Translations under genes and position numbers: made by a program | The notes under the pieces: generated by a model | The model's input: the letters and a program-made list of their open reading frames with translations, nothing else | Told to the model about the DNA's origin: nothing | The model's database searches: none | From: Eledone cirrhosa | Lineage: Eukaryota | Direction: 5' to 3' | DNA: 64,000 bases | Assembly: GCA_964016885.1 (NCBI GenBank) | Contig: OZ024757.1 | Span: 8,122,001-8,186,000, forward strand | In this document: one piece after another, positions 1 to 4,165 of the stretch | Layout: every line of letters starts with the position of its first letter | How positions within the stretch are numbered: the stretch's first letter is position 1

Positions 1-210
1 TATATTTCCCTCAACTGTGATTTCAGTTAATAGTCTTCAAATGATGATAAATAGAGGTGATGTATCCGAGATTGAAAATAATAATTTATCCCAATGTCAT
101 CTGGTATTCTGAAATAAGAAAGAAACAGTATGAGATAATAGAGAATACTTAAGAAGCAGAGATAGATTTAACAGTGGAAATTTTATATTTCTATATTGGT
201 AGACTGTAGA
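1..210 (-). other. Splice acceptor and start of exon 2 of a C2H2-ZNF paralog (ZNF-A) that continues off the left edge
   Basis: 32-210 is near-identical to 14889-15066, which precedes the ZNF ORF at 14279. The minus strand reads ctgtttctttcttatttcag|AATACC, with the AG at 110-109. Confidence 0.6.
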
Positions 211-489
211 TATCAACTTTCCTGTCCAGAGTAATTCTCTCCAATGCAAACAGTGGTATTCCAGCATGCTCTATAAATGTTATCCTTCTATCTCTAGAGA
301 AGTCTGCTCTATGGCAGTTTAGTGAAAAATTCCTTCTGATAGGACTCTCTAACATAGCTATTATCTCCTCTCCTGTTGACATGACAACAACAGTTTAACT
401 TCCATCTTTTTATTAGTAGGAATCAATTGTTTCTCTATATCTTTTTCTTACTTCTTTTCTATCTTCCTCTGGGAGAAATCGGCTGTGTT

Positions 490-1612
490 TATCCTTTGCA
501 GTTGCTGCCCATGTCTTACTACCATGCAGCATCGCACATCGGCATCATATAACCATCCTTTCGTATGCAGGGACAAACCCTTCTTTGTCAACAGAGAAAG
601 CAGCTCCCTAGACTTCTTCCAACCCATCCTTATTCTAGATACTATGGCCTCGGAACACCCCTCCCATGCTAATCTGATCACCTAGGTACCGGAAGCTATC
701 AACCACATCTATAGAACCCACCTGTATTTGAAAAATGTGTTTATCACTGCGATTACTACTGCCAACTTTCCCTATACATCTACTGCATACATAGTTATCC
801 CTACCTGTTGGTTTGCCTGCTATCCCACTACATCTCTTGTGTACCCAACATCTGCATTGCGTACATTTTATGGAATTTATGCCAGTTCCTTTCCCACATA
901 TCGAACATGGCCATTTCCACGATGGAATCAGAGTTTTGTCCTCTTTTCTACTCATCAACACTTTTGTTTAAGCTATGTTCACTCTCAGGCCTCCTGATTC
1001 CAACTGCTGTTTCCATAGCCAGAATTTATTCTCTAACCCCTCTACTGATTCGCTGATTCTGCTATAAGAACCAGATCATCAGCATAGAGAAGTTCCCATG
1101 GGCATCCAGTCTTAAACTCCTTTGTTATGGCTTTTAGGCCTATAACGAACAAGAGTAGGCTGAGGACCGAACCTTGACGTACACCTACTTGTATCTGGAA
1201 TTCCTCACTAAACTCCATTCCTACCCTCACTTTACTGACAGCACCCCTGTACATAGCTAGCACTGTCCTCACAAGCCATTCCTCTACACCTAGTTTCCTT
1301 AGGGACCACCAGATGACAGATCAGGGTACCCTATCAAAGGCCCTCTCTAGGTCAATAAAAGATATGTATAGTGACTTATTCTTCTCTAAGAACCTCCTTG
1401 TAGTTGCCTCACTATGAAGAGGGTTTCTGTTGTACTTTTCCGAGGCACAAAACCAAACTGCATCTCATCTAAATTGACCCTTTCTCTAATCAGCTGCGCT
1501 AATATTCTCTCTGCCACTTTCATAACCTGATCCATCAGCTTTATGCCCCTATAATTGCTCCTCTCTAGAGCATCCCCTTTACCTTTGTAGCAATTTATGA
1601 GAATACTGCTGT
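490..1612 (-). mobile_element. RTE-clade LINE fragment (RT plus PHD-like finger), decayed
   Basis: GVRQGSVLS, WELLYADDLVL, KWPCSIC...WVHKRC...CSRC, DSFRYLGD; frameshifts and stops. Confidence 0.9.
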
Positions 1613-1667
1613 ACCTACATTATATGCTTTCATTATACCATTCTATTTAGATTATATATATTGATTG

Positions 1668-2125
1668 TCATCATCATCATCGTTTAACGTCTACCTTCCA
1701 TGCTGGCATGGGTTTATATGGGAATTGTCCCACTTGAGGCAAGATTGGTCGGGTGACCGTATCTCACTTGTATAGGACTAGATGGCGGGTTTTCTATGGC
1801 TGGATATCCTTCCTAACACCAACCCCGTTTACAGTGTGGACTGGGAGGTTTTTACCATGTTACCTACACGGCCACATTACAGCGTGGACTGTGTGTTTTT
1901 TTGTCGTGACACCTACACGATCTCATTTATTTAGGACAGGATGTTGTGGTACCAACATAACTTTACAGAGATAGGGTGGTTTTGATGGGGTGGAATAGGG
2001 GTAGTGGGATGTATATTTGGTTAAGAGGTGCCTACTGACTGTAGGTTTCGCTATGTACATAGGCAAGGCAGATCTTCTGTATTACTGAGTAGCGCCAAAG
2101 ATCTCGGTCCAGTGACATTGTCTTA
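1668..2125 (-). mobile_element. RTE 3' end (3'UTR and (GAT)n tail)
   Basis: catcatcatcatcgtttaacgtc...catgctggcatggg, matching the 3' end of the long copy at 37372-37830. Confidence 0.85.
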
Positions 2126-2152
2126 ATGTATATATATATATATACACACAAT

Positions 2153-2183
<31 letters not shown>

Positions 2184-2423
2184 GTGTGTGTGTTAAACTG
2201 TTTATATACACGCATTATTCAACCTGCCCTTTGTTTTGAGGAAAAAGCCTTTAGTAAGTTGCAGTGGTAGTAACATCCTGAACCTTTTCCATTCCATGTT
2301 CACTCAGGCTGCTCTACTTTCAGAACCCCCCCCCTCCACTGATTGTATCATCACCCAGGTAACAGAATCTGTCTACCTCTTCTATGTGACCCTCCAACAG
2401 TTTGTTAGGGCTTGTTTCCTGTG

Positions 2424-2635
2424 AAGGCGTGCGGCTGAGTGGTTAGAGAATTGGATTCGCAATCGTGAGGTTGTGAGTTTGATTCACCGACCGGGTGATG
2501 TGTTATGTCTTTGAGCAAGACATTTTATTTCACATTACTCCTTCTACCTGGAGTTGTGACTGATAGGTAGTATTAGCAATTGGAAAGACCAATGGAAACA
2601 TTGTTTCCTCGGTCCAATTTGACGAAAGTCAATCG
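2424..2635 (+). mobile_element. tRNA-derived CORE-type SINE
   Basis: A-box-like ggctgagtggttag, degenerate B-box gagtttgattc, CORE-like tgtctttgagcaagaca; same family as 11460-11670. Confidence 0.75.
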
Positions 2636-4165
2636 TTGCTTCCTGTGAATGTTTGCTGCCTACTGCTCCTGTGCAATGGCCACATGTAAAACCTATATTC
2701 TTAGCTAACCTACCTGAGATCCCACTACATCTCTTGTGTATCCATTGTTTGTATTTTGGACAGAGAATGGAATTTCTACCTACACCTTTCTAGCACACAG
2801 AGCAAGGCCATTTTTCTGAGGGTATCAGGGCCCTGTTTTCCCTTCTACTGATACTTGGCTGGCTAACCCAGACATAGTCCTCAACAAATGAAACACTAGT
2901 GGAGTCGTAGGGGTACACTAAGTGACATACAGTATTTCTCAGGCATATTTAAAAACCTGATGGAGCCCATAACCTCTCTCGTTTGAACAGAATTGAGATC
3001 TGAATAAAACTTCAAGTGAAATCAGATATTGTATGGATTCATATAGACTCGTAACTCCTGGTCTAAACACAGCCGATTTCTCCCAGAGGAAGATAGAAAA
3101 GAAGTAAGAAAAAGATGTAGAGGAACAATTGACTCCTACTAATAAAAAGATGGAAGTTAAACTGTTGTTGTCATGTCACCAGGAGAGGAGATAATAGCTG
3201 AGGCCTGAGAGTGAACATAGCTTAAACAAAAGTGTTGATGAGTAGAAAAGAGGACAAAACTCTGATTCCATCGTGGAAATGGCCATGTTCGATATGTGGG
3301 AAAGGAACTGGCATAAATTCCATAAAATGTACGCAATGCAGATGTTGGGTACACAAGAGATGTAGTGGGATAGCAGGCAAACCAACAGTTAGGGATAACT
3401 ATGTATGCAGTAGATGTACAAGGAAAGTTGGCAGTAGTAATCGCAGTGATAAACACATTTTTCAAATACAGGTGGGTTCTATAGATGTGGTTGATAGCTT
3501 CCGGTACCTAGGTGATCAGATTAGCATGGGAGGGGTGTTCCGAGGCCATAGTATCTAGAATAAGGATGGGTTGGAAGAAGTCTAGGGAGCTGCTTTCTCT
3601 GTTGACAAAGAAGGGTTTGTCCCTGCATACGAAAGGATGGTTATATGATGCCGATGTGCGATGCTGCATGGTAGTAAGACATGGGCAGCAACTGCAAAGG
3701 ATAAACACAGCCGATTTCTCCCAGAGGAAGATAGAAAAGAAGTAAGAAAAAGATATAGAGAAACAATTGATTCCTACTAATAAAAAGATGGAAGTTAAAC
3801 TGTTGTTGTCATGTCACCAGGAGAGGAGATAATAGCTATGTTAGAGAGTCCTATCAGAAGGAATTTTTCACTAAACTGCCATAGAGCAGACTTCTCTAGA
3901 GATAGAAGGATAACATTTATAGAGCATGCTGGAATACCACTGTTTGCATTGGAGAGAATTACTCTGGACAGGAAAGTTGATATCTACAGTCTACCAATAT
4001 AGAAATATAAAATTTCCACTGTTAAATCTATCTCTGCTTCTTAAGTATTCTCTATTATCTCATACTGTTTCTTTCTTATTTCAGAATACCAGTTGACATT
4101 GGGATAAATATGATATTATTTTCAATCTCGGATACATCACCTCTATTTATCATCATTTGAAGACT

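Follow-up and report, generated by a model that had tools for sequence, protein, structure and literature searches.

Probable scar of a local rearrangement, with a split RTE element, over the predicted 3' splice site of a likely zinc-finger gene in Eledone cirrhosa

A stretch of 64,000 nucleotides (nt) from the octopus Eledone cirrhosa (assembly GCA_964016885.1, contig OZ024757.1, positions 8,122,001 to 8,186,000 of the forward strand; hereafter the window, in which all coordinates are counted) holds part of a zinc-finger (ZNF) gene cluster with three recognizable copies, referred to as ZNF-A, ZNF-B and ZNF-C. In the predicted 5' intron of ZNF-A, which is read on the minus strand at the left edge of the window, lies a long inverted repeat that is a real and young structural variant in the sequence of this assembly. 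It is interpreted here as a likely scar left by a recent local rearrangement in two steps, which split a long interspersed nuclear element (LINE) that we take to belong to the RTE family. The repeat would pair over the predicted 3' splice site and likely shut off this ZNF copy, provided that transcription of the gene begins at its predicted exon 1. To this reading as a whole we assign an even chance of being correct.

The repeat was first described in an initial annotation as a near-perfect inverted copy of 32-993 at 3200-4165, and the alignment bears this out. BLAST pairs the left arm (962 nt) with the inverted right arm (4165-3200, 966 nt) at 99.07% identity (E 0.0, 1701 bits), with 9 of 966 columns different. 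These differences amount to six events, i. e. a 4-nt insertion in the right arm and five substitutions (left-arm positions 100, 376, 772, 774 and 804), while the stretch 101-993 reaches 99.6% identity. The longest exact run shared by the arms measures 395 nt, which excludes a chance origin. Three segments make up each arm, with 77 nt from exon 2 of ZNF-A, 383 nt from the end of the intron and 502 nt from the RTE LINE. As had been claimed, this includes the minus-strand pyrimidine tract and the AG at 110-109 together with the 77 exon bases (108 to 32). Likewise, the intron of ZNF-B has no inverted copy of this kind. In a window-wide search for inverted matches of at least 60 nt and at least 88% identity, its acceptor (14889-15067) found a partner only in the right arm of ZNF-A. 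Overlooked by the initial annotation were the identity of 492-993 as RTE LINE and a third copy of part of the arm at 3064-3199.

The LINE reveals how the arms are related to their surroundings. The RTE piece that ends at 492 on the minus strand and the piece that starts at 4159 on the plus strand are collinear on a single copy elsewhere in the window (51922-50661, 83.5% identity), with approximately 5 nt absent. Since the two halves face in opposite orientation here, but are collinear in that copy and continuous in public contigs (see below), one element must have been cut and half of it flipped, which marks an inversion breakpoint. DNA flanking the breakpoint is found inverted and duplicated at both ends, namely 32-491 versus 3702-4165 and 3064-3199. 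The repair joints are of the microhomology or the blunt type: exon and LINE share the 7-nt motif GAAGACT at the arm-end junction (4159-4165), while no microhomology is present at 3199/3200.

Two further origins were considered and rejected. Terminal inverted repeats of a transposon are ruled out, as the arms consist of exon, intron and a LINE piece and no open reading frame of at least 100 amino acids (aa) lies wholly inside the spacer. Two separate LINE insertions are ruled out as well, because 460 nt of each arm lie outside the LINE, and among RTE copies the next closest reach 86-88% identity.

The third copy comprises 136 bp and carries three private changes. Those parts of the repeat that are predicted to be old differ at 6 positions in 205 nt, versus 4 in 893 nt for the young part (p 0.004 by Fisher test, one of the boundaries having been set post hoc), and for the third copy alone the age contrast gives p 0.053. 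Altogether, the duplication is young, being 0.4-3% diverged, and it lacks compensatory change. Of the five substitutions between the arms, none is compensatory; two leave G-U wobbles and three leave mismatches in the predicted duplex, in copies that are too young for a conservation signal. The frames tested for protein continuity over 3063/3064 contain stops, and no Pfam match was obtained for 194-394.

A micro-inversion with breakpoint duplication, followed by a later template switch, fits the split RTE element, the third copy, the microhomology and a 160-nt gap in ZNF-A relative to ZNF-B (ZNF-B 14728-14887), which lies only one base from the arm end. In the first step, one break close to base 32 of exon 2 and another within the RTE element would have allowed about 2.6 kb, now found at 492-3063, to be flipped. 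The intron/exon piece 32-491 would thereby have been left at both ends, its flipped copy being joined to the RTE 3' part via GAAGACT, and the 160 nt of the ZNF-A exon were probably lost at the same break. Later, a template switch at 3199/3200 may have copied the left side a second time, starting at 993 and moving outward, before it rejoined through homology. The repeat would thereby have grown to 960 bp, with 3064-3199 left stranded. This two-step history is the simplest account. As a separate observation, the alignment displays two pyrimidine-rich CAG sites within the 160 nt of ZNF-B that are absent from ZNF-A; these are potential fallback acceptors.

Contigs from 4 of the 12 listed public runs (designated X1, X4, X5 and X6) were aligned to 2200-5600, a stretch that contains one arm. 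The details considered comprise 15 listed joints of 336 and 32 pieces of 80,482, and the aligned contigs stem mostly from paralogs or other individuals. Among the listed joints, five jump from 3686-3703 to 4164/4171 (in X1, X4 and X5), so that other RTE copies are uninterrupted where the window is interrupted. An X5 contig (216 nt, 4 differences, depth 4.2) spans the junction between RTE and position 491 with 53 nt on the short side. It is compatible with either arm, but as this junction is common to both, the breakpoint is not confined to this assembly. The 32 pieces shown include none that crosses 3063/3064, 3199/3200 or 4165/4166, gaps that prove nothing, and the predicted uninverted joint from 3199 to 3838 is not among the 15 joints listed of 336. 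Letters specific to the right arm are rare in these contigs. At position 4093, a letter other than that of the right arm accounts for 14007.5 of 14025 depth in X1 and for the entire depth in X4, X5 and X6. Contigs lacking the 4-nt insertion make up 11402 of 11727 (X1), 1100 of 1100 (X4) and 8.8 of 8.8 (X5) depth, with X6 giving no cover there; both tallies reflect mostly paralog or other-individual contigs. Mismatch counts in X4 (A>G 37 and T>C 28 versus G>A 28 and C>T 21) have paralogs mixed in and cannot show editing. Depth in X4 is higher at 4110 than at 4093, which in contigs does not reflect an RNA level.

The ZNF-A model, in which the donor at 7570 is joined to the acceptor at 108, is predicted from consensus motifs and from homology to ZNF-B. 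Both are intact consensus sites. The acceptor region 31-210 is 95.6% identical to ZNF-B, and its pyrimidine fraction of 0.83 is joint top with three others among the 267 YAG sites from 7569 to 1, with the highest T content. ZNF-B counterparts of about 95% identity for the acceptor and the donor regions are found at 14888-15067 and 22946-23240. Around the donor, identity is alike (95%) on either side, which indicates recent duplication rather than selection. By homology to the ATG of ZNF-B (14614-14612), the start codon of ZNF-A is expected some 85 nt beyond base 1 on the left, which likely places the intron in the 5' untranslated region (UTR). The zinc-finger array of ZNF-A lies beyond the window edge, and ZNF-A is tied to the ZNF cluster only by the homology of its exon and donor to ZNF-B. 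The coordinates of all features are compiled in Table 1.

Table 1. Features of the ZNF-A repeat and its surroundings (strand "." where none applies).
Feature	Position	Strand	Remark
ZNF-A exon 2, visible start, likely 5' UTR	1..108	-	inferred from ZNF-B
Site where ZNF-A is 160 nt shorter than ZNF-B	30..31	-	ZNF-B 14728-14887; one base from arm end
Left arm, template copy	32..993	.	exon 2, intron end and RTE LINE
Predicted 3' splice site, pyrimidine tract and CAG	109..127	-	AG at 110-109; consensus and ZNF-B homology; splicing use inferred
RTE LINE copy, 5' part, cut at 492	492..1610	-	sequence alignment
Spacer, loop of predicted hairpin	994..3199	.	2206 nt
Third copy of 356-491, older and inverted, in direct repeat with 3702-3837	3064..3199	.	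97%; likely remnant of first inversion
Right arm, inverted copy of 32-993	3200..4165	.	4-nt insertion at 4110-4113
Same RTE copy, 3' part, opposite orientation	4159..4477	+	collinear with copy at 51922-50661
Predicted 5' splice site GAG/GTAAGT at 7570/7569	7564..7572	-	kept in ZNF-B near 23110; use inferred
Separate fold-back upstream of donor, absent in ZNF-B	7706..7871	.	stem about 75 bp, -125 kcal/mol
ZNF-B exon 2, C2H2 array, broken 5' frame	13347..14965	-	frames and Pfam

In a transcript starting at exon 1, the right arm would come first, followed by the loop and then by the left arm. Pairing would start about 880 nt before the AG and zip over branch point, pyrimidine tract and AG. The computed energy of the duplex between the arms is -1823 kcal/mol, versus -194 and -231 kcal/mol for the arms folded apart, so that a stable duplex over the splice signals is predicted by calculation. 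Branch point, pyrimidine tract and AG have to be single-stranded to be bound by U2AF and U2, which would be excluded from the 3' splice site in this situation. As a result, the 7.5-kb 5' intron is predicted to be retained and to be promiscuously edited or degraded, and no protein would be formed. A duplex over the pyrimidine tract is described to block U2AF65 (PMC7404189). The initial annotation correctly placed both arms between the predicted donor and acceptor, and the masking of the acceptor that it envisaged is plausible. Its proposal of a switch is not supported. If ZNF-A is transcribed from the 7570 donor, the duplex would likely block splicing and act as a one-way loss-of-expression lesion.

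Several points weigh against this interpretation. The entry junction of the second step is devoid of microhomology, and parsimony is what identifies 3063/3064 as the ancestral join and assigns the 160 nt to a loss in ZNF-A rather than a gain in ZNF-B. The proposed order of events is one of several that would be compatible with the same map. Gene model and RNA effect are predictions, and with the zinc-finger array located outside the window, ZNF-A may be intact and expressed, or long dead. Moreover, the 2206-nt loop is slightly longer than the range of 2000 nt given for Alu pairs that are edited. The intronic Alu pair of RABL5 altered splicing just partly, its pairing favouring inclusion (both PMC2533698).

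The same scar could also be of no consequence at the RNA level, if ZNF-A had fallen silent earlier, if its transcription starts downstream of 3200 or if splicing precedes closure of the duplex. This is a serious alternative that nevertheless appears rather unlikely to us. The broken state of the neighbours ZNF-B and ZNF-C, the further changes of ZNF-A relative to ZNF-B (the 160-nt gap and the 7706-7871 fold-back) and the similar identity on both sides of the donor, which speaks for recent duplication and not for selection, count in its favour. Against it stand the intact consensus of donor and acceptor, the position of the right arm, which would be made ahead of the acceptor, and the extreme stability of the predicted duplex. 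Another possibility is that the second arm represents an assembly or library fold-back artefact. The 99.6% identity over 101-993, the occurrence of several more fold-backs within the same 64 kb and the fact that the second arm is seen in this assembly alone would suit such an origin. An artefact is nonetheless improbable given the six difference events between the arms including a 4-nt indel, the three private changes of the third copy and the presence of the RTE/491 junction in the X5 contig; furthermore, in a chimera the arm would not be followed precisely by the RTE 3' part that is otherwise missing.

Two alternatives attribute a function to the duplex. Conceivably, it is a newborn hairpin RNA that is diced to small interfering RNAs (siRNAs), which act in trans on ZNF paralogs via their shared 5' exon and on RTE LINEs. 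A near-perfect stem of 960 bp with gene and transposable element (TE) homology has the appearance of such a precursor. Exact matches to ZNF-B were found for 18 of 57 exonic 21-mers and to other copies in the window for 62 of 482 RTE 21-mers; among 21-mers from 109-210, 42 of 82 match the ZNF-B intron end, while those from 211-491 match nothing elsewhere in the window (0 of 261). The acceptor region is multi-copy in X1 contigs, with a summed depth of 10,690-37,779 over 3796-4137 that is not a copy number. An intron-retained nuclear duplex is, however, an ADAR substrate first, the exonic part amounts to just 77 of 962 nt, and the repeat is too young to display a conservation signal. Although young Drosophila hairpin RNAs (hpRNAs) with inverted exon-2 fragments of neighbours and TE arms provide a precedent (PMC10317233), we consider this explanation improbable for ZNF-A. 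Least probable of all is the evolved cis-acting switch of the initial annotation, in which duplex and ADAR tune ZNF-A splicing. Geometry and computed energy would permit it, but the substitutions are not compensatory, the repair junctions of the RTE-splitting rearrangement fully account for the origin of the very young repeat, and no competing structure or regulator was identified. As editing might act by destroying the AG or by loosening the duplex, the direction of any effect is ambiguous. The ubiquitous editing in coleoids favours repeats in introns and 3' UTRs, and 119 of 56,520 robust genic edits in squid are assigned to splice junctions (PMC9068888), which counts in favour of the switch. 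Octopus splice sites are rarely changed by editing (PMC9699675). Editing of this stem would thus be ordinary.

Taking the hairpin further, fold-back duplication might silence coleoid ZNF genes and create regulators at the same time: ZNF-A would then give a hairpin RNA that locks its own acceptor and whose siRNAs are directed against the shared 5' exon of many ZNF paralogs and against RTE LINEs. This is a long shot. If true, the ZNF-A hairpin would be an octopus counterpart of the Drosophila hpRNAs caught at birth, and dicing of the stem would mean trans-acting control of the coleoid ZNF expansion by RNA interference, for which no published report was found in the open-licence literature. For the preferred reading, i. 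e. a rearrangement scar that masks the acceptor, the implication is that a zinc-finger cluster with fast turnover can have one of its copies disabled by a small inversion and a template switch, with the splice sites themselves untouched. The locus would also provide a natural setting in which to see if use of a 3' splice site is blocked by a perfect duplex of kilobase length.

The neighbouring paralogs bear the marks of decay. ZNF-B has a TGA at codon 5 after its ATG and stops in the first fingers, followed by an open run of about 12 fingers, and its broken frame makes it a poor control paralog. Tandem zf-C2H2/zf-H2C2_2 arrays are recognized by Pfam, with 11-12 stretches in ZNF-B and 4 in one frame of ZNF-C. 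In the latter (31904-32833), several frame changes occur at 83-nt repeat units, which could represent real decay or read errors in A-runs. With the frames of both paralogs broken, the cluster is decaying, and the ZNF-A lesion likely sits in a birth-and-death cluster. Among 120 listed homologs of ZNF-B, one originates from Octopus bimaculoides (P0055, 60% identity); it heads the list by finger style, scoring 0.83 where the others reach at most 0.5, and by a small margin also by finger identity (0.71 against 0.68). This makes a coleoid host plausible, with weak support.

A full-length relative of the RTE LINE at 37771-40782 (minus strand) contains an open frame of 1003 aa with endonuclease, reverse transcriptase and then a PHD finger as identified by Pfam, and a 93% inverted copy of it is located at 18532-21640. 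In the part that was searched, the closest of its listed relatives reach only 35-51% identity; among the 50 matches listed, the three with a named organism are from crab, with no mollusc among them. Frames at 9172-9549 and 24757-27215 resemble a fragment of a mariner transposase and a non-LTR (long terminal repeat) element of another kind, respectively; Pfam stayed blank with the two frames scanned.

Further fold-backs are scattered over the window. The near-perfect hairpin at 7706-7871 arises from an insert of about 90 nt, inverted, within the exon-1/promoter region of ZNF-A, where ZNF-B has plain sequence, and it looks like a short template switch. A second long inverted repeat (61456-61878 and 63578-63997, 97.6% identity, 1699-nt spacer) encloses an inner pair at 61867-61970/62388-62487 and a frame (62090-62410) that resembles a Penelope-like endonuclease end, without any Pfam match. 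Local fold-backs of 90-97% identity are found at 42312-42608, 56091-56192, 23419-23506/24488-24575 and 23511-23573/24278-24342, two of which involve the region upstream of ZNF-B. Overall, the region seems prone to template switching.

Each aspect of the ZNF-A locus has relatives among known systems. The Drosophila hp58 and hp-ODox1/2 loci (PMC10317233) resemble it as young inverted exon-2 fragments combined with TE sequence beside paralogs. These hpRNAs are defined by Dcr-2-dependent siRNAs and target de-repression, and RNA signal is depleted inside their duplex arms, whereas ZNF-A is known from its sequence and has a long loop of 2.2 kb. With the intronic Alu pair of RABL5 (PMC2533698) and the duplex in RELL2 (PMC7404189), the locus shares an intramolecular double-stranded RNA near or over a 3' splice site that is a predicted ADAR substrate. 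Unlike Alu pairs, the ZNF-A arms go back to one duplication rather than two TE insertions and match at 99% over 960 bp including tract, AG and exon, while previously described splice-site-masking structures mostly measure 10-40 bp (PMC2533698). In terms of origin, the repeat likely belongs to the class of inversions with inverted breakpoint duplications, which are explained by repair of staggered breaks or by microhomology-mediated break-induced replication (MMBIR). Its closest parallel there is the proximal breakpoint of the Drosophila subobscura inversion O7, a micro-inversion of 2,026 bp with short and long inverted duplications d1 and d2 (PMC7584159). In contrast to O7, the duplicated DNA of ZNF-A extends across a predicted splice acceptor inside a single predicted transcript, and the order of events is deduced here from the rearranged sequence; both have in common a flip at the kilobase scale, short and long terminal inverted duplications and a junction with microhomology.

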